Assembly: GCA_965205155.1 (NCBI GenBank)
Contig: OZ242033.1
Location: 1,460,590-1,524,589 of the forward strand
DNA length: 64,000 bases
Reading direction: 5' to 3'
From: Candidatus Aldehydirespirator sp.
GTDB taxonomy: Bacteria > Actinomycetota > Acidimicrobiia > Acidimicrobiales > Aldehydirespiratoraceae
Below, one piece after another: positions 25,440 through 56,009 of the stretch. Within the stretch, counting starts at the first letter, position 1. The number at the start of each line of letters is the position of its first letter. A model generated the notes under the pieces. It searched no databases, was not told the origin of the DNA, and was given only the letters and a program-made list of their open reading frames with translations. A program made the translations under genes and the position numbers.

Positions 25440-25529
25440 GGCACTGCGCTGATCCGGTGACGGACCATCAACCCGAGGTTTGCCCTTCACTCCAAGCGTG
25501 ATTGAACGAGATGGACCCACCTTGCAGCG

Positions 25530-27399: not shown

Positions 27400-27611
27400 T
27401 GACAACCCTTGGACTCGGCGATCATTGATGACTCAGATACCCTACTGTTTCGGCATTAGTGAAACAACCTCTATTCTGAGACATCTGGCCAGCGTGCCCC
27501 TATTGCGATGGGCATGCGGTCCCGGCGGGGGCCCGCGAGTTCGGTGGCAACGGTGAGTCGTCGTCTCCAGGTCGTCTACCGATTCGCATACCATAATGGT
27601 AGACTCTGGCT

Positions 27612-40206: not shown

Positions 40207-41703
40207 ATGTCCCGTCCGAGCACCGGTGATCTGATAGCCGGAGTTTCGGTCGCGCTTGTCGCCATCCCGCAGTCGCTGGCCTATGCCGAGCTAGCCGGAC
40301 TCCCGCCCCACTTCGGCCTCTACGCGACAGCGCTGCCGCTGTTGCTGGCCGCGTTCTTCGTGTCGTCGCGGTACGTGCAGACCGGACCGGTGGCGCTCAC
40401 CGCTCTGCTCACCTTCGGGGCACTGTCCGGGGTGGCTGAGCCCGGCGAAGCCGACTACATCCGGAGCGCGGCGATGCTTGCCCTGCTCGTGGGCCTCATA
40501 CGGCTGTTGCTCGGGATGGTTCGCATGGGCAGGGTGGCCTACCTGCTGTCGGAGCCGGTCGTCACCGGTTTCACCGCAGGTGCGGCGGTGGTGATCATGG
40601 CCTCGCAGCTCCCCAAGATCTTCGACGTCGACCCCGACGGGGAGGTCCTGGTGGCGGCGCTGCGGGCCCTGAATCAGCCCGACGAATGGCGCTGGTCGGC
40701 CATCGCCTTCGCGGCGGCGACAGTGGTACTGATGCTCGGTGGCCGTCACATCCACCGGCTTTTCCCCGGTGTGCTGGTGGCAGTCATCGCGGGTGTGATA
40801 GTGGCCGGCGCTAGCGGCTACGAGGGCACGAGAGTCGGTGACCTCGACGGCGGCTTCATACCCCTGACCCTCGACTTCGCGTGGTCGGCGGCACCCAGCC
40901 TGCTGCTGCCCGCGGTTGTGATCGCCCTGGTGGGCTTCGCGGAGACGGCCGCCATCGCCCGCACATACGCGGCGGCCGATCGCCTTGCGTGGAACGCCAA
41001 CCGCGAGATGGTGAGCCAGGGCGTCGCCAACCTCGCCTCCGCGGTGGCGGGCGCCTTCCCTGTGGACGGCTCGTTCTCGCGCACCTCGCTCAACCGGCTG
41101 GCCGGCGCCACCAGCGCCTGGTCGGGAGCGATCACCGGAGCGTTCGTGCTGATCGTGTTGCCGCTCGCCTTCCTGCTGGAGGATCTCCCCACCGCGGTGC
41201 TCGGTGTCATCGTGATCGTCGTCGTGCTGAGTCTGGTCGATGTCAAGGAGATGGTCCGCCTGCCGCGGGGCTCGTTCCCCCAGTCCCTGGTGGGGGCAGG
41301 AACCACTGTCTCCACCATCGCCTTCGCACCGCGGGTTGAGCGTGGTGTCCTGGTGGGGATTGGCTTGGCGATCGCCGTGCACCTCTATCGCGAACTGCAG
41401 GTCGCCGCGCCCGGGGAGCGTGATGGCGACACGCTCATCGTCCGGCCCAAGGGGGTGATCTGGTTCGCTACGGTGCCTCAGTTGGAGCGGGTCGTGCGTG
41501 AGGAGTTGGCCGGCCATTCGGACATCGCCTCGGTCGTTGTGGACCTGACCGGGGTGGGCAGGCTCGACTACTCCGGTGCCGTGACGCTGCGTCGCATTGT
41601 GGAGAGGATCTCGGCCGGCGGTGTGAAGGTCTCTGTGGCCGGCATTCCTCCCAGCGCGTCCGGGGCGGCGCGCGCCGAACTGGAGAACTACGAATCTCCC
41701 TGA
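40207..41703 (+). CDS. SulP-family anion transporter with C-terminal STAS domain
   Basis: IAGVSVALVAIPQSLAYAELAGLPPHFGLY is the SulP signature. There are multiple TM segments, and the C-terminal about 110 aa are STAS-like (VVDLTGVGRLDYSGAVTL). Confidence 0.85.
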   Translation: MSRPSTGDLIAGVSVALVAIPQSLAYAELAGLPPHFGLYATALPLLLAAFFVSSRYVQTGPVALTALLTFGALSGVAEPGEADYIRSAAMLALLVGLIRLLLGMVRMGRVAYLLSEPVVTGFTAGAAVVIMASQLPKIFDVDPDGEVLVAALRALNQPDEWRWSAIAFAAATVVLMLGGRHIHRLFPGVLVAVIAGVIVAGASGYEGTRVGDLDGGFIPLTLDFAWSAAPSLLLPAVVIALVGFAETAAIARTYAAADRLAWNANREMVSQGVANLASAVAGAFPVDGSFSRTSLNRLAGATSAWSGAITGAFVLIVLPLAFLLEDLPTAVLGVIVIVVVLSLVDVKEMVRLPRGSFPQSLVGAGTTVSTIAFAPRVERGVLVGIGLAIAVHLYRELQVAAPGERDGDTLIVRPKGVIWFATVPQLERVVREELAGHSDIASVVVDLTGVGRLDYSGAVTLRRIVERISAGGVKVSVAGIPPSASGAARAELENYESP

Positions 41704-41718: not shown

Positions 41719-42744
41719 GTGTTGAGTGCGATGACCGAGGCGGCCGCCTCCCCGTCGCACGAGGAGCTGGTGGCGACCATGACCGGGGGCATGGCCCGCT
41801 CCGGCCTGCCCGCCTTCGAGGGTTCGGAGCGCCTGCGCCCCGACGGTCGGCCCCGCCCGGAGTTCCGTGACCAACTGCGACGGATCCCCGACACCCTCAA
41901 CGCGTTGACGGTGGTGGCGACGCTCGCCGCGGCGGTGGCACTGGTCGCGGCTGTCATCGCACTCGACCACTGGCCGGCCACAGCCGTCGCGGTGCCGGTC
42001 ATGGGAATCGTGATGCTGCGGATGTTCATCCTGCACCATGAGGCGGCCCACCGCCTGCTGTTCTCCAACCGCCTCGCCAACGACATTGTGGGCGTCAACA
42101 TCCTGGGGTGGCTGCCCTTCGGCACCGGCACTCACCACTACCGGCGGGGCCATGTGAACCACCACCGCGACGAGTTCGGCCCCAAGGAGCCCGACTTCCT
42201 GCTGTACTCCTTCTACCCGGTGCCGCGGGACTCGATGCGTCGCAAACTCTTGCGGGACCTCTTCGGCGTGTCGGGCTACCGGATCGTCAAGCCCCGCTTC
42301 ACAGGACTCGTGCGGCCCCCGTTCCTGGTGTTGAGCCTGCGGTTCTTCGCCGGGCAGGCGCTGGTGTTCGGCGCCTTCTGGGTTGCCGGTCACCCGTGGC
42401 TCTACCTGGTGCTGTGGGTGTTGCCCTACTTCACCTACTACCAGGTGGTCAACCGTCTGCGGGCCATAGCCGAGCACGGCGGGATGACGCGCACGCCCGA
42501 CCGCCGCAACACCACCCACCACGTTCGCCAGAGCGCCGCGGCCCGCCTGTTGCTGGTGCCCTACAACGTGGGCTACCACCTGGCCCACCATGTGGACTCA
42601 GGTATCCCGGCCCGCAACCTCCCCAGGCTGCAGAAGGCCCTGGAGGAGGACGGCTACCTGCCTGCCGAAGCGATCTGGCCCAGCTACCGGTCGCTGTGGC
42701 AGGCCCTGGTGCGGTCGGAGCCCGAGCCAGCCGGGGCGGCCTGA
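41719..42744 (+). CDS. membrane fatty-acid desaturase family
   Basis: Three His boxes: HHEAAH, HVNHHR and LAHHVD. Hydrophobic helices lie between them. Confidence 0.8.
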   Translation: MLSAMTEAAASPSHEELVATMTGGMARSGLPAFEGSERLRPDGRPRPEFRDQLRRIPDTLNALTVVATLAAAVALVAAVIALDHWPATAVAVPVMGIVMLRMFILHHEAAHRLLFSNRLANDIVGVNILGWLPFGTGTHHYRRGHVNHHRDEFGPKEPDFLLYSFYPVPRDSMRRKLLRDLFGVSGYRIVKPRFTGLVRPPFLVLSLRFFAGQALVFGAFWVAGHPWLYLVLWVLPYFTYYQVVNRLRAIAEHGGMTRTPDRRNTTHHVRQSAAARLLLVPYNVGYHLAHHVDSGIPARNLPRLQKALEEDGYLPAEAIWPSYRSLWQALVRSEPEPAGAA

Positions 42745-42765
42745 TCTCCGGCTCGGCTCGGCCTC

Positions 42766-43161
42766 TCAGAACGAGAAGCCGTCCAGAACCTGCTTGAGGG
42801 CCTCGGTGTCCTCGGAGCCGAGCACGACCCTCGAGTTGGTGGCCACGTAGACGATGTCGAGGTTGATGCCGGCGCTCGAGACCATCCGGGCCAGCTCGGC
42901 CAGCTCACCCGGCCGGTCCTTGGCCTGGACCACCACCACCTCGCGCTCGCGGGTGACGGTCGGTCCTTGCGTGTTGGCCAGCGCCCGGTACACCGGCTCG
43001 CTGTGGGGCACGAGGATGTGAAGCTCGGCCGATTGGCCGTTGCCCATGCAGGTTGCCGCCGCGATGTTCACGCCCGCGTCGCTGATCGCGGTGGCCACTT
43101 TGGCCAGCGCTCCCGGTTTGTTCTCCAATTCGATCACCAGGTCGCTGGCCAGAGTTGACAT
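42766..43161 (-). CDS. tandem ACT-domain protein
   Basis: 131 aa from ATG 43161 (after GAGGAGGG). Two ACT-like units: LVIELENKPGALAKVATAISDAGVNI and VVVVQAKDRPGELAELARMVSSAGINL. The 294-aa track ORF is an artefactual 5' extension across the next gene. Confidence 0.7.
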   Translation of the reverse strand: MSTLASDLVIELENKPGALAKVATAISDAGVNIAAATCMGNGQSAELHILVPHSEPVYRALANTQGPTVTREREVVVVQAKDRPGELAELARMVSSAGINLDIVYVATNSRVVLGSEDTEALKQVLDGFSF

Positions 43162-43261
43162 GAGAGCGGATCCCTCCTCGGGTTGTGGAGCCCGGTGCGC
43201 TCGCCCGGGCGGGTAGGGAACGGACTGTAGAGCACAACCGTGCCGCTGTGAAGCCCGGTCA

Positions 43262-43777
43262 TCAGGACCCGGTGAGAAGGCGAAGCGTGGGCTCGACAGC
43301 AGCGTCGGCCCGGACCATGACCGCGGCCTCATCGATTCCGCCCAGCGGGTGGTCGACGGCCACGATCCGCAGATCGGGCACCCCGAGGGTCTGGGCCACT
43401 CCGGTGGCCAGTGTCCGGAAGCTGGTCGTCGCCAACAGGACGGTGGGCGTGCCGGCCGACTCGAGGTTGACGGAGTCGTGGACACTCCACGACGTGCAAC
43501 TTCCTCAATCGGCTGAGCCGGTGAGTACCACCTCTGCCTCCGCCAGGCGGGCCAGCAGGTCGTCAGGTGCGGGCAGGGCGGCGTTCTTGCGTTCCACGAC
43601 CTCCACCCTCGCGCCGGTGCGAGCCGCGAGCTGTTCCGCCACACGGCCAAGCAACAGGCCGGCGTTCGGCTTGGAGTTGTCGAGAATCCCGATGCGCTTG
43701 CCGGCCATCACCGGCTCGGACGGCGCGAGGCCAGCGGCCGACGGTCCGACCGCTCCCTCAGGTGCGTAGATCTTCAT
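43262..43777 (-). CDS. UGSC-motif selenoprotein candidate (171 aa with Sec at codon 91; in-frame TGA at plus 43505-43507)
   Basis: Track ORF 43505..43777 ends ...VVLTGSAD-TGA. The same frame continues for 80 sense codons (GSCTSWSVHDSVNLESAGTPTVLLATTSF...HPLGGIDEAAV...LLTGS) to TGA at 43262-43264, with strong GC3 bias. The motif is D-U-G-S-C. A SECIS-like hairpin lies 11 nt downstream of the TGA. ATG 43777 follows GGAG. Confidence 0.7.
43475..43493 (-). promoter_or_regulatory. SECIS-like stem-loop downstream of the in-frame UGA
   Basis: mRNA: UGA-GGAAGUUGCAC-GUCGUGGA-GUG-UCCACGAC. This is an 8-bp perfect stem, a G/U-containing apical loop about 20 nt after the UGA, and 11-nt spacing. Confidence 0.55.
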
Positions 43778-43816
43778 CGGCGGACTCCATTCTCGCTCAC
43801 AGGGGCAGACATGGGC

Positions 43817-44929
43817 TCAAGCCTCCACGGCCACGGTGGCGCTTCGGGTCATGCCCCAGCTCGGGATGACCGAGCTGTGCTTGCCCGGTCCTCCGACGAC
43901 GACGATCCTGATGTTGCCGGGATGCTCCGTGATGGGCAGGGGCTCGTCGTCGCCCACAGCCTCCTGCCAGGGCGCCCACGCCCGTAGCGCGAAGGCGGCC
44001 CGCAGGTCGCCGGCGCGCAGGCGGGCCCGCTCGTGCAGGTAGGACGCCACATGGCTGCGGGTCCAGCCCGCGGCCGCGCAGGCCGAGGCGTGCTCGGGGC
44101 ACATCATCACGAAGAACTCGGCTCCGCTGACGGGCGCGTTGTTGGATCCCAGCGAGGCCATGGCCGAGGCCGCCTTGTCGAGGATGGCCGCCGGCTCGCT
44201 CGACTCCATGTCGTGGAAGTTGTGGGGCGCCTCGCCGCAGTGCACCGTGACCGCGGAGGGCGCGTCCACACCGACACTGGCTGCGTAGCCTCCCCAGGGC
44301 GACTCGGCCAGGTTCTCGGCCACGCAGTAGGTGTACTTAGCCGGCCCGCCCTGGGTGGAGGCATCGCCCGAACCGGGGACCGCGCCAGCGACGTGAAGCA
44401 GCAGCAGGCGCAGCGCCCGGCCGGTGGCTGCGTTGGCCAGATTCCCGGGGCCGAAGGCGCCGAGCCCGGCGTTGTAGCCGGCGGTTCGGGCGATCTCGCC
44501 GTGCACGATGAGCAGTGGCGCCACTGGATGAGTGGTGGCGTTGACGCCTCGCAGGTTGACCTCCGGCCGGGCGAGAGCCCTCACCCCGGCAACGAGAACG
44601 GGCAGATGCTCGGGGCGGCAGCCGGCCAGCACCGCGTTGACCGCGATCACGCGCCGGGTGGCCACCCCGGACCGGGGCGGCAGGGTGGCTACGGGCTCGT
44701 CGGGGTCGCCGAGACTGCCGGCCAGCATGGCGTCGACCCGCTCGGGCGTGGGGGCCATCAGCGGCAGCCCGTCACCCCAGCCGCGCTCCGCGTAGCAGTC
44801 CCGGACCGCCTCGGGGTCGTCGGATGCCACGTCGAGCATCTCCAGCGGGTCTGCCACGAGCCCCAGTCTGCTGGCTGCTGGACGTTCCTGCTCCAGGTGG
44901 GCGTGTGAGCCGGTCAATGGGGAGCGCAT
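43817..44929 (-). CDS. conserved-looking hypothetical protein (370 aa), directly upstream of the UGSC gene
   Basis: Strong GC3 coding bias and no motif I can assign (ERGWGDGLPLMAPTPERV near the N-terminus). A 39-nt gap separates it from the UGSC gene start. The start is uncertain: ATG 44929 or downstream. Confidence 0.6.
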   Translation of the reverse strand: MRSPLTGSHAHLEQERPAASRLGLVADPLEMLDVASDDPEAVRDCYAERGWGDGLPLMAPTPERVDAMLAGSLGDPDEPVATLPPRSGVATRRVIAVNAVLAGCRPEHLPVLVAGVRALARPEVNLRGVNATTHPVAPLLIVHGEIARTAGYNAGLGAFGPGNLANAATGRALRLLLLHVAGAVPGSGDASTQGGPAKYTYCVAENLAESPWGGYAASVGVDAPSAVTVHCGEAPHNFHDMESSEPAAILDKAASAMASLGSNNAPVSGAEFFVMMCPEHASACAAAGWTRSHVASYLHERARLRAGDLRAAFALRAWAPWQEAVGDDEPLPITEHPGNIRIVVVGGPGKHSSVIPSWGMTRSATVAVEA

Positions 44930-45042
44930 CGCTTCCCGGCAAGACGGGTACGAGCTGGTATTTCACTACATGAAAGATAACGATAGAGATACACATGGTG
45001 CATCGGCGCGAAGGGTGATCGACGTTGCACTAGCCTGCGGAT

Positions 45043-46578
45043 ATGAGCACCGAGCGTCGACGCCGGCGGCCGCGACAGGCCGCGGTCACCGAGCCGGGCG
45101 GTCCTGTCCAGCCGCCGTGGCGGCTGCATGAGCGACGGTTCGATCCGACACCGATCGTCAGTGACGACGAGTTGGAGGCAATCCACGCCGCGTCGCTGAC
45201 CGTGCTTCGCGACACCGGAATGGAGTTCCTGCATCCGACGGCTCGGCGGATGTGGGCCGAGGCCGGGGCCAAGGTCGACGGGGATCGGGTGCGCTTCGAC
45301 CCGGAGATGGTCACCGAACTGGTGGCCACCGCGCCCGGCGAGTTCGTGCTGCACGCCCCCGACCCGTCCCGCCATCTGCCGATGGGTGGGCGCAGCGTGG
45401 CCTTTGGTTCGGTGGCCAGCCCTCCGAACGCGGCCGACCGGGCCGGCGGCCGGCGCACCGGCAACCGGGAGGACTTCCGGAGGCTGGTGATGCTCAGCGA
45501 GGTGCTCAACGCGGTCGGTTTCCAGGGTGGCTATCCGGTCGAGCCGGTGGACGTGCACGCATCGGTACGCCATCTGGTGGCTACCCGCGATCTGCTGACG
45601 CTGACCGGCAAGGCTCTTCACTGTTACTCACTCGGGGCTCGGCGCAACCTTGACTGCCTGGAGATGGTGCGCATCGTGCGCGGCGTCAGCGATGAGGAGC
45701 TGGAGGCGCAGCCGTCGATCTTCACCGTGGTGAACTGCAACTCGCCGCTGCGTCTCGACACGCCCATGCTTGAGGGGATCCTCCAGTACTCGGCTCGCAA
45801 CCAGGTGGTGGCGGTCACCCCGTTCACGCTGGCCGGGGCGATGGCGCCGGTCACGGTGGCCGGCGCGGTGGTGCAGCAGAACGCCGAGGCCCTGGCCGGC
45901 ATCGCCTTCTGCCAACTGGTGAGGCCGGGTTCGCCGGTGATCTATGGAGGATTCACCTCCAACGTCGACATGCAGTCGGGCGCCCCCGCCTTCGGCACCC
46001 CCGAGTACATGCAGGCGGTTCTGCTCGGGGGCCAGCTCGCTCGCCGGTACGGCGTCCCCTACCGGTCCTCCAACGTCTGCGCGGCCAACGCGGTGGACGC
46101 CCAGGCCGCCTACGAGAGCGTGTTCTCGCTGTGGGCGGTGGTGACGGGCGGCGCCCACATGGTGATGCACGGGGCGGGGTGGATGGAGGGCGGGCTGCAG
46201 GCCTGCTACGAGAAGATGGTCATCGACGCCGACATGATCGGCATGGTGGGGGAGTTCCTGCGGCCGCTGGCCACCGACGCCGACTCTCTGGCGGTGGAGG
46301 CCATCGCCGAGGTCGGCCCGGGCGGGCACTTCTTCGGCACCGCCCACACCCTGGCCCGCTACCGGGACGCGTTCTTCAAGCCGATGGTGTCGGACTGGCG
46401 CAACTACGAGACCTGGGTCGAGGCCGGCTCGCCCACCGCCCTGGACCATGCCGAGCGCCTGGTGGGCGAGCTCCTGGCTGCCTACGAGCCCCCACGGCTG
46501 GCCGATGACGTCCGGGCCGAACTCGACGACTTCACCGACCGGCGCATAGCCGAGGGCGGTGTCGAAACCGACTTCTAG
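45043..46578 (+). CDS. MttB-superfamily methyltransferase (trimethylamine methyltransferase family, non-pyrrolysine type)
   Basis: 511 aa. Arg-rich N-terminus followed by SDDELEAIHAASLTVLRDTGMEF. TIM-barrel blocks include VNCNSPL, FTLAGAMAPVT and GAPAFGTPEY. There is no in-frame TAG. Confidence 0.75.
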   Translation: MSTERRRRRPRQAAVTEPGGPVQPPWRLHERRFDPTPIVSDDELEAIHAASLTVLRDTGMEFLHPTARRMWAEAGAKVDGDRVRFDPEMVTELVATAPGEFVLHAPDPSRHLPMGGRSVAFGSVASPPNAADRAGGRRTGNREDFRRLVMLSEVLNAVGFQGGYPVEPVDVHASVRHLVATRDLLTLTGKALHCYSLGARRNLDCLEMVRIVRGVSDEELEAQPSIFTVVNCNSPLRLDTPMLEGILQYSARNQVVAVTPFTLAGAMAPVTVAGAVVQQNAEALAGIAFCQLVRPGSPVIYGGFTSNVDMQSGAPAFGTPEYMQAVLLGGQLARRYGVPYRSSNVCAANAVDAQAAYESVFSLWAVVTGGAHMVMHGAGWMEGGLQACYEKMVIDADMIGMVGEFLRPLATDADSLAVEAIAEVGPGGHFFGTAHTLARYRDAFFKPMVSDWRNYETWVEAGSPTALDHAERLVGELLAAYEPPRLADDVRAELDDFTDRRIAEGGVETDF

Positions 46579-46637
46579 AAGAGCCGGAGGGACCTTGAGC
46601 GTTGCGGTCGGGGAGCGGCGGTGGTGTACTTCGCGCC

Positions 46638-47918
46638 ATGGGGCATCCCTCCGGCGGCGGCTTGATCGACTTCACGTCCGAGGAATTCTGGTGTGCGACC
46701 CGCCGACCGCTGGATCAGGCGACCGGCCTCCCGCCCGTCGCCTACACCGGTGACGACTTCTTCGAGGTGGAGCAGCGCCGGCTGTTCGCCCGGGCCTGGG
46801 TGGCGGTGGCCTCCGCGGCCGAGGTGGCCGAGCCCGGGCGCCTGCTGGTGCGCTCTGTGGGCGGCACGTCGGTGCTCATCACTCGGGATCGCGACGGCGT
46901 TCTGAGGGGCTTCGTCAACTCGTGCCGCCACCGGGGAACGGAGCTCGCCGCCGAGGACTGCACCGTGTCGCGAATGATCCGGTGCCCCTACCACCGCTGG
47001 GGGTACTCCCTCGACGGCTCGCTGGTGGCGTCCCCCCTGTTCGACGAGGTGCCGCGCCCGGACTTCGACCCGGCCGAGCTGTCGCTGCTGCCGGTGCGAG
47101 TGGAGGCCTGGGGCTTGGATGTGTTCGTCTGCCTGGACGAGACCACACCGCCGCTGGCCGAGTGGCTGGGCGACCTGCCCGAGCGCATGGCCGGCTACGG
47201 CTTCGACGGCTGGGTCGTCCACGAGAAGAGCACATTCGACGTGGCCGCCAACTGGAAGCTGATCACCGAGAACTTCCAGGAGTACTACCACCTGGCCTGG
47301 GTCCACCCTGAGCTGGCCAAGGTGTCCCGGGTTCGGGACCACTACCGCTACCAGGGGCCGGGCCTGTACTGCGGCCAGACCACCACGCCGGTGTCGAGCG
47401 ACGAGCGCGACGACTGGTTGGTGCTGCCGAACGCGCCCGGGCTGGATTCGTCGGACAGCGTCAGCGGGCGGTTCGTGGCTGTGTTCCCCAACCTGACGCT
47501 GGCGGTGCTGCCCGGCCACGCCTTCGTGATCCGTCTCGAACCGCTGTCGTCGGGCACCACGCGAGAGCACTGCACTCTGCTGCTGCCGTCGTCCACGCCG
47601 GCCGAGAAGTACGGCGACGCCGCGGCCGAGACGCTCAAGTTCTGGATCGAGGTGAACAACGAGGACATCGACATCTGCGAGCGGTCCTACCGGGGGCTGG
47701 CGCGGGGCGCGGCCCCGCCCGGTCCGCTGTCACCGCGCTTCGAGGAGCCCCTGCACCGCTTCCAGAACATGGTGGCCGACTGCCTCACCGCCGATTCGCT
47801 CGCCGACGGGTTGAGAATCCCGCCCGGGGACGGTCCCGACGACGGTGCGCGCTACGGCTGCAAGCCGAACCCCGCTCTGCCCGCCATCGACGCTCGCCGG
47901 TGGTCGCTCTCTGACTGA
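46638..47918 (+). CDS. Rieske [2Fe-2S] oxygenase alpha subunit
   Basis: CRHRGTELA...CPYHRWGYSLDG Rieske motif and NWKLITENFQEYYHLAWVHPEL iron motif. Confidence 0.8.
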   Translation: MGHPSGGGLIDFTSEEFWCATRRPLDQATGLPPVAYTGDDFFEVEQRRLFARAWVAVASAAEVAEPGRLLVRSVGGTSVLITRDRDGVLRGFVNSCRHRGTELAAEDCTVSRMIRCPYHRWGYSLDGSLVASPLFDEVPRPDFDPAELSLLPVRVEAWGLDVFVCLDETTPPLAEWLGDLPERMAGYGFDGWVVHEKSTFDVAANWKLITENFQEYYHLAWVHPELAKVSRVRDHYRYQGPGLYCGQTTTPVSSDERDDWLVLPNAPGLDSSDSVSGRFVAVFPNLTLAVLPGHAFVIRLEPLSSGTTREHCTLLLPSSTPAEKYGDAAAETLKFWIEVNNEDIDICERSYRGLARGAAPPGPLSPRFEEPLHRFQNMVADCLTADSLADGLRIPPGDGPDDGARYGCKPNPALPAIDARRWSLSD

Positions 47919-47949
47919 TCGGCCCGATCCGACCGGTAGGAAGCCCCGA

Positions 47950-50502
47950 ATGAAGACCGGCGCGCAGGTTGTGGTGATCGGCGGGGGAGTGGTGGGCGCC
48001 AGCGTGCTCTACCACCTGACCGAGGCGGGCTGGACGGATGTGGTGCTGGTGGAGCGGACCGAGCTCACCGCCGGGTCCACATGGCACAGCGCGGGCGGCA
48101 TGCACACCGTCAACGGCGACCCCAACGTCGCCCGCCTCCAGCGCTACACGCTGCAGCTGTACGCCGAGATCGAGCGGGTGTCGGGCCAGGACTGCGGCAT
48201 TCACATGCCCGGCGGCCTGATGCTGGCCGACACGCCCGAACGGCTCGACTGGCTCAGGATGACCCACGCCCGGGGTCGTTACCTGGGCATGGAGACCGAG
48301 ATGGTGTCGGTGGCCGAGGCCGCTGAGATGGTGCCGTTGATCGATCCCAAGCACTTCGTGGGGGCGCTCATCGACGCCCACGAGGGCCATGTCGACCCGG
48401 CCGGGGTGACCCACGCCTACGCCAAGGCGGCACGGATGGCGGGAGCCGAGGTGTACCGCAACTGCTGGGCCCGCGCCATCGAGCGCGGTGCGGGCGGGGG
48501 CTGGCGGGTCCTGGTGTACGACACCGCCACCGGCGAGGACCTGGCCGCCATCGACTGCGAGCACGTGGTGAACTGTGGTGGCCTGTGGGCCCGCGAGGTG
48601 GGCCGCATGGTGGGGCTCGAGCTGCCGGTGCTGGCCATGGAGCACATGTACGTGGTCACCGAGCCGCTGGAGGAGGTGCGCGACTACACCAGGCGCACGG
48701 GCTTGGAGTTGAGGCTCGTGATCGACTTCGGTGGCGAGATCTATATGCGCCAGGAGGGCGATGGCATGCTCCTCGGCACCTATGAGCAGGCCTGCCTGCC
48801 GTGGGCGCCCCGCCAGACGCCATGGGACTTCTCGATGAGGCTGCTGCCGCCCGACCTGGACCGCATCGCGGGCTCGCTGGAGGTGGCCTTCGCCCACTTC
48901 CCGGCGTTCGCCAACGCGGGGATCCAGCGGGTGGTGAACGGGCCGTTCACGTTCGCGCCCGACGGGAACCCGCTGATCGGCCCGGTCAGGGGGCTGCCGG
49001 GATACTGGACGGCGTGCGGGGTGATGGCCGGGCTGTCGCAGGGCGGCGGCGTCGGGCTGTCGGTGGCCAACTGGATCACCGGCGGTGATCCCGGCTTCGA
49101 CGTGTGGGCCATGGACGTGGCCCGTTTCGGCGACTACGCCACGGTCGCCTACACCGATGCCAAGGTGCGGGAGAACTACTCGCGCCGGTTCCGGATCACG
49201 TTCCCGAACGAGTTCCTGCCCGAGGGTCGGGGCGTGCAGACCTCACCCATCTATGACCGGTTGGCGGCGGCCAACGCGGTGTGGGGCGACGCCTTCGGTC
49301 TGGAGTCGGCGCTGTGGTTCCAACAGGACGGGCTGGAACCGGTCGAGGAGGTCACCTTCGGACGCTCCAACGCATGGGACCGCGTACGGGCCGAGACCCT
49401 GGCCGTCCGGGCCGCCGTCGGCATGATGGAGACCACCGGGTTCGCCAAGTTCCTGTTCGAGGGGCCGGGGGGCAGGGCGTGGCTGGACCGGCTGCTGGCC
49501 GGGCGGGTGCCGATCCCGGGCCGCATGGCGCTGACGCCGATGACCAACCCGGCGGGGAACCTCGTCGGCGACCTGACGGTGGCGTGCCTGCCGGCCGCGC
49601 CGGGTCGGGCTGAGGGTCCGGCGGGCACGGTGGTCGGCGGCGCTACCGGCAACGTACGGGATGGCGAGCGGTTTGTGGTGCTCGGCTCCGGCATCGCGGA
49701 GCGCTACTACGAGCGTTGGTTCGACGCACACCTGCCCGACGACGGCTCGGTCGCCTACCAGACGCTCGGAGCCGAGATGTGCGGCCTAGCCATCGCCGGG
49801 CCGGCGGCGCGGGCGCTCCTGGCCGAGGTCACCGACACCGACGTGTCGGCTCACGGGATGCGGTTCATGGCCTTCGGTGAGATGGAGGTGGGCCAGGCCC
49901 CGGTGTGGTGCGGGCGGATCAGCTTCACCGGCGACTTGGGCTACGAGCTGTGGATGCCGGCCCGCTACCAGCGCTACGTGTTCGGCCTGCTGCGGGAGGC
50001 CGGCGAGGCGCACGGCTTGGAGCTGTTCGGGCTGCACGCGTTGAACTCGCTGCGCCTGGAGAAGGGGTTCGGCTCGTGGCTGCGGGAGTACCGGCCCGAC
50101 TACGACCCGTTCGAAGCAGGGCTGGGCCGTTTCGTGCGTATGGAGAAGGACTTCATCGGGCGGGACGCGCTGGTTGCCAAGTACGGCGAGAACGGCCCGC
50201 CCGGCGGCGTCGCCGGGACTGGCCTGCGCCTGTGCACCTGGACCGTGGACGTGGGCACCGGCCCGGACGCCTGCGACGTGATCGGCGACGAGCCGGTGTG
50301 GCACGACGGCGAGGTGGTGGGCTGGGTCACCTCCGGCGGCTACGCCCACCACAGCGAGGCATCGGTGGCCATGGGCTACATCCCCGCCGAGTTGGCCGAA
50401 TCCCCCGGCCGCTTCGAGATAGAGATAGTCGGCACCCGCCGTGCCGCTACACCCGTCACCGGCTGCCTATGGGACCCCGAAGGCACCCGCATGAGAGGCT
50501 GA
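47950..50502 (+). CDS. FAD oxidoreductase + GcvT-domain fusion (dimethylglycine/sarcosine dehydrogenase-like), second paralog
   Basis: ATG 47950 gives MKTGAQVVVIGGGVVGASVLYHL...GSTWHSAGG. The C-terminal half has ISFTGDLGYELWMP and GGYAHHSEASVAMGY. Confidence 0.85.
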   Translation: MKTGAQVVVIGGGVVGASVLYHLTEAGWTDVVLVERTELTAGSTWHSAGGMHTVNGDPNVARLQRYTLQLYAEIERVSGQDCGIHMPGGLMLADTPERLDWLRMTHARGRYLGMETEMVSVAEAAEMVPLIDPKHFVGALIDAHEGHVDPAGVTHAYAKAARMAGAEVYRNCWARAIERGAGGGWRVLVYDTATGEDLAAIDCEHVVNCGGLWAREVGRMVGLELPVLAMEHMYVVTEPLEEVRDYTRRTGLELRLVIDFGGEIYMRQEGDGMLLGTYEQACLPWAPRQTPWDFSMRLLPPDLDRIAGSLEVAFAHFPAFANAGIQRVVNGPFTFAPDGNPLIGPVRGLPGYWTACGVMAGLSQGGGVGLSVANWITGGDPGFDVWAMDVARFGDYATVAYTDAKVRENYSRRFRITFPNEFLPEGRGVQTSPIYDRLAAANAVWGDAFGLESALWFQQDGLEPVEEVTFGRSNAWDRVRAETLAVRAAVGMMETTGFAKFLFEGPGGRAWLDRLLAGRVPIPGRMALTPMTNPAGNLVGDLTVACLPAAPGRAEGPAGTVVGGATGNVRDGERFVVLGSGIAERYYERWFDAHLPDDGSVAYQTLGAEMCGLAIAGPAARALLAEVTDTDVSAHGMRFMAFGEMEVGQAPVWCGRISFTGDLGYELWMPARYQRYVFGLLREAGEAHGLELFGLHALNSLRLEKGFGSWLREYRPDYDPFEAGLGRFVRMEKDFIGRDALVAKYGENGPPGGVAGTGLRLCTWTVDVGTGPDACDVIGDEPVWHDGEVVGWVTSGGYAHHSEASVAMGYIPAELAESPGRFEIEIVGTRRAATPVTGCLWDPEGTRMRG

Positions 50503-50561
50503 ACCAGCCATTTTCATGTAATTGAGTTATTCTCTGAGATTGCACGAGCTACAGTCATGTC

Positions 50562-50810
50562 GTGGACGTCAACTCGGTCTCACAGTTGGTGACGGTGGCT
50601 CTGGCCGTGCTCGCCATCATCTGTCACCAGCAGCGCTCCACCGACAAGTTGCGCGACCGCCTGGACGCATCCGACCGCGAGCACCGGGCAGCCATCGACA
50701 AGCTCCGCGACGGTTTGGGCGAGGTGAAGGAGCGGCTGGTCCGGATTGAGGGCTTCCTGGGAATCGGCACTCCAACACCACCCCATCCCCACCCCCCGGC
50801 GGGGGAGTAG
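50562..50810 (+). CDS. small membrane/coiled-coil protein, paralog 1
   Basis: 82 aa: N-terminal TM helix (VSQLVTVALAVLAIICH), DKLRDRL repeats, and RIEGFLGIG. It is a tandem paralog of the next gene and has an AT-rich upstream region. Confidence 0.5.
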   Translation: MDVNSVSQLVTVALAVLAIICHQQRSTDKLRDRLDASDREHRAAIDKLRDGLGEVKERLVRIEGFLGIGTPTPPHPHPPAGE

Positions 50811-50819
50811 GCGGAGAAG

Positions 50820-51050
50820 ATGGACATCGGCGCGGTCTCGCAGATTGTGACAGTCGTGCTGGCCGCGCTTGCCATCATCTGGCACCAGCAGCGAGTCACT
50901 GACAAGCTGCGCGACCGCCTAGTCAGCGTGGAGCAGCGACTTGCGCGGATCGAAGGCTTCCTGGGCATCGGCATGCCCGCCGCCGCAGCCGCAAAGGCAA
51001 CCGGAGCGGACCTCGCCTATAAGCCGCAAGAGGACCCGGAGGCCGACTGA
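50820..51050 (+). CDS. small membrane/coiled-coil protein, paralog 2
   Basis: 76 aa: MDIGAVSQIVTVVLAALAIIWHQQRVTDKLRDRL...RIEGFLGIG. ATG follows GGAG. It is collinear with paralog 1 apart from a 19-aa indel. Confidence 0.5.
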   Translation: MDIGAVSQIVTVVLAALAIIWHQQRVTDKLRDRLVSVEQRLARIEGFLGIGMPAAAAAKATGADLAYKPQEDPEAD

Positions 51051-51249
51051 GTGTCGTGAGGCCCGCGCCATGGCGACCGCGAGGGTATGTCGTAGCCGCG
51101 GGGTACGGTCTGACACGTGAGCGAAGCGGGCGGCGGGGAGCTGTTCATCGTCGACAACAGCGTTTCGGGCTGGACGGGTCTGGAGTAAGCGCGGCCGTCC
51201 ATTCGTGCAAGATTGGGAGGTCTGCCAACCCTGTTGTTGGGCCCCAGGC

Positions 51250-51534
51250 TCAGTTGTGGCTTGCGACCTCGTCGATCAGGGCTTCGACATCGTCGAGCCA
51301 GCCGCTGAGTTCCGACTCGATTGGTGGAAGGTCGTACGCGTGGTGGGGGCAGGCGTTTGAGAGGCCGTGCCATGCGTACCGGACCCGCCTGACCAACTCT
51401 TTGTTGCTGTACTCGGACAGGCAGATCATCTGTGCACACCGTGGGGCGGCTTCGACACCGGGAGCTGCCCTCATGGGCGTCGGCCCCCAACGGGCTATTG
51501 GCGGTTCCGCCATGTCAACCAGGGTTGAACCCAC
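51250..51534 (-). CDS. small hypothetical protein (start uncertain)
   Basis: The C-terminal 59 codons (MICLSEYSNKELVRRVRYAWHGLSNACPHHAYDLPPIESELSGWLDDVEALIDEVASHN) have about 85% GC3 by hand count. No family recognised. Confidence 0.35.
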   Translation of the reverse strand: MGSTLVDMAEPPIARWGPTPMRAAPGVEAAPRCAQMICLSEYSNKELVRRVRYAWHGLSNACPHHAYDLPPIESELSGWLDDVEALIDEVASHN

Positions 51535-51730
51535 GACGCCGAGGCTGCAACCGCGGTGGCGTGACCTTGGGCACAGCGGCTACGGTCACCGACTGCCATC
51601 AACGCCGGATGCCTCCAAGCATCCCTAGCAACCGAAGCCGCGTCTCGGGATCGTGGCTTCATGGTCCCCTTCGGGTTTCGGTTGCGGCGTTGATGGCAAA
51701 GACACCGATCCCGAACCGGAGGGGACCACC

Positions 51731-52237
51731 ATGCCCCGACCTCTCAAGGTCACTCTCATCGTCCTCGGCTGTCTCGTCGGCCTATTCGTAGTGCTCGGCG
51801 TCGTCGGCGCTCTCGTAGCCCCCGACGAACCCGCTACGCCTGCACGCGTCGAGTCCGCGGCCGTCGCGCCGGCCACCACCGCACAACGAGCCACGACCAC
51901 GACGGCCCGGCCCGCACGACCCGTCACGCTGACCGGCCGCGGCCAGGACATCACCCGAGCCGTCCCCCTCTCCGACGGCCGCTGGCGGGTCACCGTCGAA
52001 GTCTCCGGCAACACCGACGACGCTTTCGGCACGGCGCTCGACAGCAACGTCATAGTCACCGCCTTCGGGGATGACGACTACGCCGAACTCCTAGTCAACG
52101 ACATCGCCGCCTCGGGGACGTGGACGGGATCGCTCGCCGTCGGAAACGACATCTTCGAGGTTCCTCCGGGAAGCGTCTGGTTTGAGGTCGAGGTCGTCCG
52201 GTCGGCGACCTGGACGATCAGAGTCGAGCCGCTCTAG
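51731..52237 (+). CDS. membrane-anchored secreted protein of unknown function
   Basis: ATG after GGAGGGG. An N-terminal TM anchor (VTLIVLGCLVGLFVVLGVVGALV) is followed by an Ala/Thr/Pro linker and then a beta-rich 100-aa domain. Confidence 0.55.
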   Translation: MPRPLKVTLIVLGCLVGLFVVLGVVGALVAPDEPATPARVESAAVAPATTAQRATTTTARPARPVTLTGRGQDITRAVPLSDGRWRVTVEVSGNTDDAFGTALDSNVIVTAFGDDDYAELLVNDIAASGTWTGSLAVGNDIFEVPPGSVWFEVEVVRSATWTIRVEPL

Positions 52238-52360
52238 CTCCAGGGGCGGCTACACGTCAGTAGTCGCCTAACAGGGATATATGCAATTGACGATCTCCTG
52301 CAGTCTGACCCAGGGTGAGACTTGCGGGTGGACGCCCGGCATCTGAAGGGAGGCCAATCG

Positions 52361-52633
52361 ATGGGCACAACCACAGCTGCGAGGGCCTTCGCTCCAGGCG
52401 AGTATCTGCGTGACGAACTTCAGGAGAGAGGTTGGGCCGCCGTTGAATTCGCCAGGGTCGTCGATTGGCCCCTCCAAACCTTGACTGAGATCCTTGTCGG
52501 AGAAAGGGAGATCACCGTCGAGGCGGCTCAAGTTCTTGCCGAGGCACTCGGCACGACGGCCGAGGTATGGCTCAATCTACAGAAGGCCTACCGCCGGGAC
52601 CAGTTGCGCGCCATCAGCGGGTCGGGCACTTGA
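52361..52633 (+). CDS. higA: HigA-like XRE-family HTH protein
   Basis: 90 aa. PGEYLRDELQERGWAAVEFARVVDWPLQTLTEILVGEREITVEAAQVLAEALGTTAEVWLNLQ is the classic HigA/VapI antitoxin pattern. ATG follows GGGAGG. No HigB-like gene is adjacent. Confidence 0.75.
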   Translation: MGTTTAARAFAPGEYLRDELQERGWAAVEFARVVDWPLQTLTEILVGEREITVEAAQVLAEALGTTAEVWLNLQKAYRRDQLRAISGSGT

Positions 52634-53634
52634 GGCGGGCCCACTCGCTGGCGACGATCCTGCTCGTGGGCCGGCTCTGCGCCGAAGGGGTGCGACCGCT
52701 CAGGGCATCGGAGTTCTGGAGCCTGCTCGACTGCATCGGCGCTGGTGGACGGCAGCGGGCGGGCCCAAGACGGCTGCTCGGGCAGAGCGCGGATCAACTC
52801 GTGCGAGATCATGGCCTCCCCGAGGATCTTGGCGAGCGCATTGCAGAACTGATGGACCGTGCCACGGCCGTGGCCTTCGAGCTTGACCGGTTGGAGCAGT
52901 CTGGCATCAAGACCCTAACCGTCTTCGACGAGCACTACCCGCGGCTATGGCGCGACCGTCTCGGTGCCAAGGCCCCGCCACTAGTACATGCCGCTGGCGC
53001 GCTCGAACTGCTCGACACGCCCGGATTGGGGGTGGTCGGCAGCCGAGACGTGTCCCGGGAAGGGGGTGAGGTGGCCAAGGAAGTTGGCCGGTTCGCGGCC
53101 CGGCGGGGACGACCGATTACTTCTGGGGGAGCTCGGGGCGTGGATCAGCTCGCCATGGACGCGGCCCTTGAGGCTGGCGGGTCCGTCGTCGGAGTCTTGG
53201 CTGAGTCACTGGCACGGAAGTTGAAGAGTCCCGATGTGCGCCGCGCTGTGCACGAAGGTGCCACGGTCGTGTGCACCCCCTACAGCCCGGATGCTCCCTT
53301 CAGCGCCGGCAATGCCATGGGTCGCAACAAGCTCATCTACGCACAGGTCGCGCTCACAGTTGTCGTAGCCAGCGACGACGGGACCGGCGGCACCTGGTCT
53401 GGTGCCACCGAGGCTCTCAAACACGGTTACGGCTCGGTCGCGGTATGGCGGGGCGACGGCGAGGGTCCCGGAAACAGATCCCTCCAACACAGGGGTGCCC
53501 AGCCTGTATCCAGCGTCGAAGACATCGAGCCGCTCCTCAATGGCGGTGCACAAGCACCGCCATTGCAATCGCAATCGGCCCCAGTGCGGCCTCCCGAACA
53601 GCAATCCTTGTTCGCGGCAACATCGCCTGATTAG
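52630..53634 (+). CDS. DprA/Smf-like (SLOG-fold) DNA-processing-family protein
   Basis: VVGSRDVSREGGEVAKEVGRFAARRGRPITSGGARGVDQLAMDAALEAGGSVVGVLAESL...FSAGNAMGRNKLIYA...GGTWSGATEALK follows the DprA Rossmann-domain pattern. A candidate TTG start overlaps the higA-like stop (TTGA). The start could also be the upstream ATG at 52567. Confidence 0.65.
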   Translation: MRRAHSLATILLVGRLCAEGVRPLRASEFWSLLDCIGAGGRQRAGPRRLLGQSADQLVRDHGLPEDLGERIAELMDRATAVAFELDRLEQSGIKTLTVFDEHYPRLWRDRLGAKAPPLVHAAGALELLDTPGLGVVGSRDVSREGGEVAKEVGRFAARRGRPITSGGARGVDQLAMDAALEAGGSVVGVLAESLARKLKSPDVRRAVHEGATVVCTPYSPDAPFSAGNAMGRNKLIYAQVALTVVVASDDGTGGTWSGATEALKHGYGSVAVWRGDGEGPGNRSLQHRGAQPVSSVEDIEPLLNGGAQAPPLQSQSAPVRPPEQQSLFAATSPD

Positions 53635-53690
53635 TCCGAGGCCTTCGGTGCGCAGGTTGACCGGCGCCGGGGCTGGACATCCAGGACGCG

Positions 53691-54242
53691 TCAGTGGTCG
53701 AAGTAGTCGGGACCCCTTGCGCGTCGATGAACTGGTCGGAGTGAGCGGCCGGCGTCTTCGATGGCGTTCGCGATGTTGCAGGCTTCGGTCTTCGAGATGT
53801 CGCCGTTGGATACGGCCGTTCGGAGAATCTGGACCGAGTCGATCACCCTGCCGGGGCCGAGCGATTGGCGTCGCCGAGCGAAGTCGTAGGCCTTGTTGTC
53901 GTCGGTGGCGAACTGTCCTCCCAGCTTCTCGGCAAAGTAGATGCCCTCAGCCTCTCCGCCGTCGCCCTCGGGTGGATACTTACCGTCGTTGAGCCCCACC
54001 TGAAGGTGGAGCACATCCTTGAATTCGCTGGCACTTGGGGCGACAGGGGTTCCGAGCCAGGTCTCATCGAGGATGTCGGAGCAGTGGGCCTCACCCCTAT
54101 GCATGGCGGACTCGATCTCAGCGTGAATTTGCTCTGTCCATCGGGGTTCCGGCCGGTGGCCATGGCAGGCGGCAAGTATGTCCAAGCGCTTGACGGCCGC
54201 GAAGTGGCGAAGCGTGACGGCGTCATGGATCACGGGGCCCAT
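53691..54242 (-). CDS. PIN-like nuclease domain protein (toxin candidate)
   Basis: An N-terminal Asp (VIHDAVTL) plus GEAEGIYFAEKLGGQFATDDNKA match the acidic PIN-fold pattern. It lies 22 nt downstream of the XRE-ImmA gene. Confidence 0.5.
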   Translation of the reverse strand: MGPVIHDAVTLRHFAAVKRLDILAACHGHRPEPRWTEQIHAEIESAMHRGEAHCSDILDETWLGTPVAPSASEFKDVLHLQVGLNDGKYPPEGDGGEAEGIYFAEKLGGQFATDDNKAYDFARRRQSLGPGRVIDSVQILRTAVSNGDISKTEACNIANAIEDAGRSLRPVHRRARGPDYFDH

Positions 54243-54264
54243 GAGCCGATGGTACGAGCCGGTT

Positions 54265-55464
54265 TCAGGCTGCTACGGGATCCTCGTCGAAGCTCTGGAT
54301 CGCCACCTCTGGCGGATCTTCGGGAGCCGAGAAGTCGCCATCGATGGCCTCGGCGGCGTCGGGCCCGATGGAGTTGAGCGCCTCGATCATTTTGTCGACG
54401 TCAACGTCAAGAAGCCTCGCAAGAGGTCCCGCGCCGACGATCCCGTCCAGCGCGCCGTGGAGGCATCTCGAGGCCAGCAGGGTAGGTGGTCTCCTCTCGG
54501 GCCTCGCCCCCCGCGCTGCCAGCAGGTTGCGGGCGATCTCCTCGTCGTCCAAGTGCTCGATCAGGCTGGCCCACCTGATCCTCCGCAATCGGTCTCGTCC
54601 TTCGGCGTTGATTATTCCCAGGTTGTGGAGGCGGTAGATGAGGGTCTCGTAGCTCACGCCGAAGCCCACGAGCATCCGCGCCAAACTCTTTCCTCCACGG
54701 CCGTACTCGTTGATGGTGTCCCTGATCTCCGACTCAGGCATCAAGAACGCGGCGGCAAACGCATTCGCCAGCCGCTCCTCATCGGATCGGGCCCGCAGGT
54801 CCCTGTCGATGTTGATCGTTGTCCCATCGCTGTTGAGGACGTGCCCCAACTCGTGAGCCATAGTGAACAGAGCCCTGGATCTGAGTTGGTCGGTGTTGAC
54901 GAGGATGAAGGAGAACTCCGAATCAGCTATTGACAGGCCTAACGGTGCATCTTCGCCCAGGCTCTCCGCCATCACGTCCACACACAGGTTGTCCTCAATC
55001 GCCGCGGCCAGATCCGTGAGACGATCCTCGCCGCTGGCTGCTGGAGTCAGACGCTGTTGCGTCCAATCGGCTAGGGCGTTGGCATGCTCCAACCACCCGG
55101 ACTCCTGTCGGGGTGGCTCACCGGCGCGAGAGGGAGTGGGATGACCGCCCTCGTCAAGCACTTGGTGCAACTCTGCGAGTGCGGTAAGTCGCATCAGCGA
55201 GTCCCGGTTGGCGGTCTCGTCGCCGTTAGTACGGTGCGCGACCGGAAGCCGCCCCAGGAGCGAGTCAGGCTCAAGAATCGCGAGTTGCGACACACCCAAG
55301 AAGTTCGCGATCGCAGCGAGTTCGGCGGCCTTCACGTTTCGCCGGTCGTGTTCGAGGTTGGACACGGCGCTGGCGTCTACCCCCAACGCGTCCGCGAGAT
55401 CCGCGGCCTTGAGTCCCGCGGCCTCCCTCAGCCGCCGGATCTGGCGGCCGATGGACATGTCCAC
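54265..55464 (-). CDS. XRE-family HTH fused to ImmA/IrrE (COG2856-type) zinc metallopeptidase domain
   Basis: N-terminal IGRQIRRLREAAGLKAADLADALGVDASAVSNLEHDRR (HTH_XRE). HExxH motif in FTMAHELGHVL. There is an extra 120-aa C-terminal region. Confidence 0.75.
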   Translation of the reverse strand: MDMSIGRQIRRLREAAGLKAADLADALGVDASAVSNLEHDRRNVKAAELAAIANFLGVSQLAILEPDSLLGRLPVAHRTNGDETANRDSLMRLTALAELHQVLDEGGHPTPSRAGEPPRQESGWLEHANALADWTQQRLTPAASGEDRLTDLAAAIEDNLCVDVMAESLGEDAPLGLSIADSEFSFILVNTDQLRSRALFTMAHELGHVLNSDGTTINIDRDLRARSDEERLANAFAAAFLMPESEIRDTINEYGRGGKSLARMLVGFGVSYETLIYRLHNLGIINAEGRDRLRRIRWASLIEHLDDEEIARNLLAARGARPERRPPTLLASRCLHGALDGIVGAGPLARLLDVDVDKMIEALNSIGPDAAEAIDGDFSAPEDPPEVAIQSFDEDPVAA

Positions 55465-55571
55465 AAGTGGACAGTATCAGCGATTCTTGCGGAAATCGCA
55501 AGTCTTTCTGGGGAGAGAACGGGGTACGCAGTGGGACAAGTCGCGAGTCCCTGTGGATAAGTCTGCGTCGC

Positions 55572-56009
55572 TTACTCCCGGTGTTGGGACTCGATGTTGG
55601 GGTCGAGGGTGTGGTAGTCGGAGGCGTCGTCTACGAAGATGGCCCACTCGGTGTGCAGTCCCGTGGGCGGGTCAAGGGTGCCGGCGCAGATGGCGATGTG
55701 GTCGACCTGGCGGGGCAGACCCTCCGCCACCTGCCAGAACAGTGAACTCCCGCACTCCCGGCAGAAGCCGTAAGCCACGTTGGGATCGTCGGCGGGGTGG
55801 TGCCAAGCCAGGCTTGCGTCGGACAGGAGCCTGAGGTCGGAACGCCTGCATCCCGAACCTGCCATGAAGTGGCCCGTCCAGCGGCGGCAGCGCCAGCAAT
55901 GGCAGTTCCAGACCTGACGGATCGGGCCGTGCACCTCGTAGCTGACAGCGCCGCACAGGCAGTGGCCCGAGGGCGGCGAGTCGGGCTCCGGGCGGGGGTT
56001 CTCATTCAC
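55572..56009 (-). CDS. GFA/CENP-V family (glutathione-dependent formaldehyde-activating-like) zinc protein
   Basis: GHCLCGAVSYEV...CHCWRCRRWTG...GFCRECGSSLFW shows the characteristic Cys clusters. Confidence 0.75.
   Translation of the reverse strand: MNENPRPEPDSPPSGHCLCGAVSYEVHGPIRQVWNCHCWRCRRWTGHFMAGSGCRRSDLRLLSDASLAWHHPADDPNVAYGFCRECGSSLFWQVAEGLPRQVDHIAICAGTLDPPTGLHTEWAIFVDDASDYHTLDPNIESQHRE

Follow-up and report, generated by a model that had tools for sequence, protein, structure and literature searches.

Glycine and proline reductases work with a selenoprotein B, a second and larger protein and a thioredoxin system. A further, orphan selenoprotein family, named UGSC, has figured on lists of abundant marine and freshwater metagenome selenoproteins since the mid-2000s and is among the most abundant of the aquatic families (PMC2398784, PMC13188914). 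We have analyzed here a UGSC gene from a Candidatus Aldehydirespirator genome, lying within a window of 64,000 nt (the whole stretch of contig OZ242033.1 under study, ~70% GC). In the region of interest, 42766-50502, the UGSC gene follows the gene for an uncharacterised protein that we call X370, and the two are divergent from genes for an MttB-superfamily methyltransferase, a Rieske oxygenase and a dimethylglycine dehydrogenase-like protein. We find that X370 and UGSC form a widespread, near-obligate two-protein module, often carried as one fused protein, and that the methylamine connection proposed for them in an initial annotation of this DNA is not supported.

The UGSC family itself is already known and named. 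What appears to be new is its partnership with X370, its fold, its remote similarity to protein B, and its accessory genes. In papers that use the term 'UGSC' we found no account of a near-obligate X370 partner or of X370's lack of a solved or curated relative, nor of a flavodoxin-like fold, a protein B-like similarity, or accessories of the short-chain dehydrogenase/reductase (SDR), NifU-like and thioredoxin reductase types. The 2008 Global Ocean Sampling (GOS) paper devotes one sentence to a 'UGSC/Unknown_1' fusion, in which Unknown_1 may correspond either to X370 or to the NifU-like tail described below.

The UGSC selenoprotein and its X370 partner

The UGSC gene (43262-43777, minus strand) encodes a 171-aa protein with selenocysteine (Sec) at residue 91, within a U91-G-S-C94 redox motif. 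It scores 134.4 bits against NF041046 (cutoff 125) and 155.9 bits against PF24696 (cutoff 25), the latter match covering profile positions 2-171 of 172, and so is a full-length member of the family known from the Sargasso Sea and GOS surveys, from which the gene itself differs in nothing. The Sec codon is an in-frame TGA (43505-43507, minus strand) in the context GSAD-U-GSCTSW, and it aligns with the Cys codons of homologues. Across 87 homologous loci this codon is TGA in 32 and TGC or TGT in 55, and in no case TAA or TAG. Likewise, where UGSC genes are split, the interrupting stop over all sets of loci is TGA (89 of 89), never TAA or TAG. The Sec form is present in 55 of the 62 scorable metagenome loci of the X370-anchored set introduced below.

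Comparison of the Sec and Cys forms reveals a hairpin of the bacterial selenocysteine insertion sequence (SECIS) type, GUCGUGGA-GUG-UCCACGAC (43475-43493, minus strand), which begins 11 nt past the UGA. An identical 21-mer, ACGTCGTGGAGTGTCCACGAC, with an 8-bp stem and a GUG loop, is found in the window and in 30 of 30 Sec-form loci examined. The Cys forms encode the same peptide, T-S-W-S-V-H-D, but with AGC and GTG at synonymous sites, and in most Cys forms examined these substitutions leave the stem weaker or disrupted. Synonymous sites that are frozen in the Sec forms only are the signature of a bacterial SECIS. The folding z-score of this stretch is by itself unremarkable (-1.29), but it is uninformative because the region is GC-rich, and the comparative codon evidence was used in its place. 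That the TGA encodes Sec, and that the selenocysteine is genuine, is well supported by these comparisons.

The X370 gene lies 39 nt upstream of UGSC, whose ATG is preceded by GGAG, and is present as a 370-aa open reading frame (ORF) from an ATG at 44929 (43817-44929, minus strand). Because the homologues are only ~346-354 aa long, the true start is probably either the GTG at 44857, which gives a protein of 346 aa, or the ATG at 44839.

The association of the two genes was followed in a UGSC-anchored set of 87 loci, of which 80 are from GTDB genomes, and in an X370-anchored set of 80 metagenome loci whose X370 proteins are 35-71% identical to that of the window. Conclusions about neighborhoods rest on hidden Markov model and phmmer matches and on precomputed annotations, with antisense-looking gene clusters in high-GC loci disregarded. 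X370 is immediately beside UGSC on the same strand in all 87 UGSC-anchored loci and, in all 80 of the GTDB genomes, its homologue is directly upstream. Working from the partner, UGSC is directly adjacent to X370 on the same strand in 69 of the 80 metagenome loci (downstream, as in the window, in 20, and upstream in 49). The remainder comprise 4 loci with UGSC within ~0.5 kb, 6 contigs that are too short, and 1 locus without UGSC. With the short contigs set aside and the near-adjacent genes counted, UGSC accompanies X370 in 73 of 74 loci. The window shows the same arrangement, with the two genes adjacent and on one strand.

In many cases the two proteins are joined. The X370 family comprises 4,724 cluster representatives at E<=1e-3, and among the best 150 of these, which were examined, at least 48 are X370-UGSC fusions, with the domains in both orders. 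They consist of 16 full UGSC-X370 proteins, 29 gene calls that start just past the TGA of a UGSC-X370 gene, and 3 X370-UGSC proteins truncated at the TGA. AlphaFold modelling of a natural fusion (pTM 0.88) was confident for both domains, with disorder only at the N-terminus and in the inter-domain linker, which suggests that the two domains hold a defined relative arrangement. The initial annotation had proposed a tight pairing of a UxxC selenoprotein with the 370-aa protein, and both the adjacency counts and the fusions bear this out. One further candidate fusion, P0078 (549 aa), was rejected as an N-terminally over-extended gene call. Both CxxC cysteines have been lost from the fusions P0253, P0258, P0259, P0281, P0322 and P0340, among others, and in such CxxC-less fusions the UGSC domain may be purely structural.

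In seven loci (L010, L015, L040, L049, L078, L098 and L132) a second, much more diverged UGSC/X370 pair is found a few kb away, mostly with the gene order reversed (UGSC then X370). These diverged pairs suggest that old paralogous subfamilies exist, possibly with different substrates.

X370 is an uncharacterised alpha/beta protein of ~345 aa with no solved or curated relative. None of 70 family members matches Pfam or NCBIfam at E<=1, and a sequence-profile search of the PDB with X370 returned nothing credible. Structure prediction, proposed for this protein in the initial annotation, gave a very confident AF2 model (pLDDT 95.2, pTM 0.93) but no fold relative, the model having no PDB match at E<1e-3 or TM >0.3. 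Matches to class I fumarase and to the Toblerone fold were rejected as noise (TM <0.3). Among the 150 representatives the conserved residues are D23, T102-T103, N136, D159, K168, E175, W182 and H250, together with R141 (148 of 148) and two cysteines, C74 (139 of 147) and C172 (131 of 147). C74 lies in an NAV(M/L)AGC motif just ahead of a helix N-terminus. Conservation of this kind resembles that of the active site of an enzyme whose cysteines are reactive.

The UGSC domain is predicted to be a flavodoxin-fold protein. In the model the fold is beta-alpha-beta, with the U/CxxC motif at the start of the helix after the third strand, and the nearest solved folds are flavodoxin-like domains, whilst a sequence-profile search of the PDB with UGSC found nothing credible. 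The GOS paper had assumed a thioredoxin-like fold, a guess that the predicted flavodoxin-like fold corrects.

Weak sequence matches connect UGSC to the protein B selenoproteins. When 20 diverse UGSC members were compared with NCBIfam, GrdB was matched by 18 (best E 1.8e-5), GrdF by 18, 'various_sel_PB' by 16 and GrdH by 12, the weak matches falling on GrdB model positions ~302-397. In the window protein, residues 44-147 align with model positions 302-397, and the coordinates alone would put U91 near model position 349; we take the catalytic Sec of GrdB to lie at about residue 350, inside the matched stretch. UGSC has a UxxC-type motif, as does PrdB, which the GOS table gives as UxxC, and, as in the glycine, sarcosine, betaine and proline reductases, it has a larger obligate partner (X370) and, in one lineage, a thioredoxin reductase link. 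In other respects the systems differ. GrdB is a protein of ~430 aa, whereas UGSC has 171 aa and reaches no protein B family cutoff; only positions 302-397 of the 431 in the GrdB model are matched, and PF07355 gives no match. The pyruvoyl partners of protein B are GrdE, GrdG, GrdI and PrdA; among 70 X370 members none matched the GrdE or PrdA models even at E<=1, nor was there any resemblance to the N-terminal region of GrdB, and no GrdE/PrdA-type proprotein, GrdA, GrdC or GrdD is annotated at the relatives' loci. The Grd and Prd systems are hosted by Stickland-fermenting clostridia, whereas the hosts of X370-UGSC are mostly Acidimicrobiia and other Actinomycetota, whose lifestyle we assume, from taxonomy and gene content, to be aerobic. 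We read the similarity as a hint of distant kinship with the region of protein B that bears the Sec, and not as membership of that family.

Gene neighborhoods of the pair

The layout of the region is as the initial annotation described it, with all six genes, the gaps between them, the in-frame TGA and an AT-richer divergent spacer confirmed. On the minus strand, UGSC is followed after 100 nt by the gene for a 131-aa tandem-ACT protein (42766-43161, minus strand; PF01842, two stretches). The divergent spacer (44930-45042) is 113 nt long, or 185 nt if X370 starts at 44857, and has a GC content of 53% against ~70% for the window. Homologues of the window genes come mainly from Acidimicrobiia.

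Beyond the spacer, the first plus-strand gene (45043-46578) encodes a 511-aa, non-pyrrolysine member of the MttB superfamily. It matches PF06253 with 629 bits over profile positions 2-500 of 500, and thus has a full-length MTTB domain, but it reaches only 294 bits against TIGR02369, the model for pyrrolysine-dependent MttB proper (cutoff 525), and its ORF is uninterrupted by any in-frame stop. In these respects it is like the non-pyrrolysine MtgB systems, with their full-length PF06253 domain and absence of a pyrrolysine codon. It also resembles MtgB betaine clusters in adjoining an enzyme of the dimethylglycine dehydrogenase type (PMC12478193). The operon differs from MtgB systems in carrying a Rieske oxygenase, which is a separate, O2-dependent demethylation route. 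This second gene (46602-47918, plus strand) encodes a Rieske non-haem-iron oxygenase alpha subunit (PF00355 and PF00848) that shares with GbcA a [2Fe-2S] domain and a catalytic alpha-subunit domain. GbcA is its best named model (NF058607), but the score of 148.9 bits is far below the cutoff of 670, so that the protein is not GbcA. There is no reductase partner in the operon. The third gene (ORF 47845-50502, plus strand) encodes an FAD dehydrogenase joined to a folate-binding GcvT part, with the domains DAO, FAO_M, GCV_T and GCV_T_C in order, the architecture of dimethylglycine and sarcosine dehydrogenases; its start is likely the ATG at 47950, giving a protein of 850 aa, as long as its relatives.

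The three genes plausibly constitute an unremarkable operon, a candidate for the demethylation of methylated or quaternary amines, with any corrinoid partners presumably encoded elsewhere. The initial annotation had remarked on the absence of corrinoid and redox partners nearby. No corrinoid protein or tetrahydrofolate/coenzyme M methyltransferase is annotated in the shown regions of the two syntenic relatives (L081 and L082) either. However, this is no anomaly, because aerobic MtgB acts with MtgC/MtgD and cobalamin-reactivation modules whose genes are not co-located in Ruegeria and Phaeobacter (PMC12478193).

Adjacency of this operon to the X370-UGSC pair is confined to relatives with X370 at >=81% identity, of which two were sampled. 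In the closer one (L081, X370 87% identity) the layout MttB-Rieske-DAO/GcvT divergent from X370-UGSC-ACT is identical to that of the window. In the other (L082, 81%) the MttB and DAO/GcvT genes are still the divergent neighbors, the Rieske gene is gone and the ACT gene lies 3 kb off. This locus (L082:1-9740) carries two MttB paralogues, a glucose-methanol-choline (GMC) oxidoreductase, a glutathione-dependent formaldehyde-activating (GFA) protein and a major facilitator superfamily transporter, with no Rieske gene. The second MttB, the GMC oxidoreductase and the GFA protein fit choline/betaine-type catabolism. Even the island of amine-catabolic genes next to the pair thus varies.

At slightly greater distance the association is lost. 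None of six loci with X370 at 72-77% identity (L173, 77%; L083 and L084, 75%; L086 and L087, 73%; L085, 72%) has MttB. Instead, the pair heads an operon X370-UGSC(Sec)-SDR, followed in 4 of the 6 by a NifU-like protein of ~81-87 aa, with gene junctions down to 1-4 nt or overlapping and a TetR regulator usually upstream. The flanks of these operons hold acyl-CoA dehydrogenase, enoyl-CoA hydratase, AtuA/carboxylase, FMO and amidohydrolase genes. Within 6-10 kb of the pair, MttB, Rieske and ACT genes are found in 0 of the 80 GTDB loci and 0 of the 80 metagenome loci; a single weak DAO-type match was seen, in the GTDB set. The neighborhood tabulation for which the initial annotation had called thus gave a divided result: the linkage of X370 to UGSC is conserved, but that to the MttB and Rieske genes is not, an outcome that the annotation had itself named in advance as grounds for abandoning its proposal. 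The ACT protein, which is beside the pair only in the closest relative and in none of the 160 broader loci, was rejected as a member of the module.

The genes that do recur beside the pair are of a different kind. An orthologous SDR gene either follows the pair directly or lies upstream in divergent orientation in about half of the 87 loci, as judged by eye, and clustering of the neighbor proteins places it in 38 of 161 loci. The NifU-like CxxC protein, with the motif (A/T)ECAECVMP, is near the pair in 43 of 161 loci (for example L086:12411-12656, L173:10418-10681, L171:7173-7427 and L170:3876-4136), and UGSC proteins of ~270 aa (P0190, P0196, P0226 and P0233) end in this domain as a C-terminal fusion; it matches the Pfam model for NifU only weakly (7e-4). 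One lineage has X370 joined to a complete thioredoxin-disulfide reductase (P0250; TIGR01292, 334 bits, profile 2-300 of 300), encoded at L088:5226-7313 and L089:1053-3140 in an operon that runs UGSC(Sec), the X370-thioredoxin reductase fusion, an epimerase/3beta-hydroxysteroid dehydrogenase-type protein and an SDR. Other recurrent neighbors are PF04909-type amidohydrolases, F420-dependent LLM oxidoreductases, TetR regulators, acyl-CoA dehydrogenases, thiolase/ChsH2-like proteins and a P450. These neighborhoods point to lipid, terpenoid or steroid-like catabolism rather than to methylamines. From the same comparisons, the lineage of the window has kept the core pair only, which now stands beside a different operon.

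Possible chemistry of the pair

A thiol/selenol redox role for the pair is plausible, and the accessory genes point to reductase chemistry. Whilst the pairing of X370 and UGSC is an observation, its chemistry is something we infer. The mechanism that we think most likely follows a principle like that of the glycine and proline reductases, although the module itself falls outside that family. X370 and UGSC probably form a heterodimeric reductase in which X370 binds and activates a small-molecule substrate in its conserved pocket. Electrons from NAD(P)H would enter by way of a thioredoxin-type reductase or the NifU-like CxxC carrier. U91 and C94 of UGSC would hand over two electrons, forming a selenenylsulfide that would then be re-reduced by a thioredoxin-type system or the NifU-like protein. 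The selenolate would act with C74 and C172 of X370 on the bound substrate, and the co-encoded SDR would carry out a step before or after this one on that substrate.

On balance, we consider it rather probable that the window holds two unrelated units, neighbors only through recent synteny, and that X370-UGSC is a thioredoxin-linked two-protein reductase. Our fuller proposal is a tentative one, possible rather than probable: that the module represents an unrecognised class of Sec-dependent reductase, fed by thioredoxin, with a catalytic subunit whose fold has no solved relative, that carries out reductive bond cleavage like that of glycine and proline reductases, perhaps with C74 as a reactive or processed residue, in Actinomycetota of water and soil and in further bacteria, their lifestyle being probably aerobic. 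A number of points count against our main reading of the region. The locus in the window is itself without SDR, NifU-like and TetR genes. The CxxC motif is gone from many of the fused UGSC-like domains whilst the X370 part usually keeps C74, so that redox cycling by UGSC cannot be essential in every member. The window UGSC scores only 19 bits against the GrdB model TIGR01917 (cutoff 602), with ~100 residues covered. Reviews up to 2026 place the UGSC protein among selenoproteins with largely uncharacterised functions. Finally, the adjacency to MttB is kept in two related genomes, and a lineage-specific functional link is possible.

That last point bears on the role suggested in the initial annotation, in which X370-UGSC serves the neighboring MttB/Rieske/dimethylglycine dehydrogenase demethylation pathway as its thiol/selenol redox or activation partner; reactivation of a corrinoid would be one such task. 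The two units are divergent and 113-185 nt apart, their arrangement survives in the relatives at 87% and 81% identity despite other changes of neighbor, and UxxC chemistry would in principle be able to reduce a cofactor. These arguments are difficult to reconcile with the loss of the MttB linkage at or below 77% identity and its absence from all 160 broader loci, with the TetR-flanked X370-UGSC-SDR-NifU-like operons of the 72-77% relatives, which sit amid acyl-CoA and terpenoid catabolic genes, and with the use by known aerobic MtgB systems of MtgC/MtgD and dedicated, not always co-located cobalamin-reactivation modules (PMC12478193). We regard such a partnership as very improbable.

There are two other rival readings. 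The four conserved Cys/Sec residues, split over two proteins, could be ligands (U91/C94 and C74/C172) of a shared metal or Fe-S center supplied by the NifU-like protein as donor, making the module a metalloenzyme, such as a hydro-lyase or reductase, in place of a disulfide relay. Recurrence of the NifU-like CxxC partner, nearby or fused, is consistent with this idea, and the weak top fold matches of X370 are to Fe-S class I fumarate hydratases. However, those matches are at noise level (TM <0.3, E ~1e-2), C172 and the UGSC CxxC are lost in many fused members, the similarity of the CxxC protein to NifU is itself slight, and the thioredoxin reductase fusion favors dithiol/disulfide chemistry; we judge a shared metal center unlikely. 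The same fusion would suit a generic antioxidant or thiol-disulfide oxidoreductase (a peroxidase, protein-disulfide reductase or detoxification enzyme) with no dedicated small-molecule substrate, as would the occurrence of UxxC in many thioredoxin-, peroxiredoxin- and DsbA-like selenoproteins, with which the literature groups UGSC. Against this stand the flavodoxin-like rather than thioredoxin-like fold, the obligate 345-aa partner with a rich conserved polar site that looks substrate-specific, and the placement of the pair in catabolic operons (SDR, acyl-CoA dehydrogenase, amidohydrolase, TetR) and not in stress regulons, and a generic role of this type seems to us a little less likely again than a metalloenzyme.

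With these results an orphan selenoprotein becomes a defined, testable system, with one specific partner and two recurrent companions, an SDR and a NifU-like CxxC protein; a fused thioredoxin reductase occurs once. The tempting link to methylamines is removed as unsupported. Cys forms of the pair occur in cultivable hosts (Embleya, Yinghuangia and Streptodolium), and Hyphomonas neptunium is reported to have a member of the family (PMC1976440). Were X370-UGSC indeed a Sec-dependent reductase class, it would provide a function for an orphan selenoprotein family that ranks among the most abundant in aquatic metagenomes.

Other features of the window

A scan of 42500-45200 for sigma-70-like promoters gave one match, against 0.2 expected. 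It lies at 43224-43252 on the minus strand, within the gap between UGSC and ACT, and the ACT gene may accordingly be transcribed separately. Convergent to the ACT gene are plus-strand genes for a fatty-acid desaturase family protein (41719-42744) and a SulP/STAS transporter (40207-41703), which are syntenic with L081 and have no link to the X370-UGSC module. The window as a whole yielded neither a tRNA, tRNA-Sec included, nor any Rfam family.

A low-GC island at 23600-30200 (GC fraction 0.52-0.62, against ~0.70 for the window) contains an Mrr-type restriction endonuclease fusion (23682-25439, plus strand), a weak nucleotidyltransferase match (25530-26810, minus strand) and an FRG-domain protein (29271-30149, plus strand), and probably represents a defence or mobile island gained by horizontal transfer. 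Immediately past the DAO/GcvT gene there is a second stretch of lower GC (50500-56000, 0.64-0.67), which encodes a DprA/SLOG-like protein (52567-53634, plus strand) and a protein with helix-turn-helix and Peptidase_M78 (ImmA/IrrE-like) domains (54265-55464, minus strand). At the same site L081 carries SNF2/PLD helicase and PIN/PhdYeFM toxin-antitoxin genes, and this difference in cargo indicates that a variable island borders the MttB operon.

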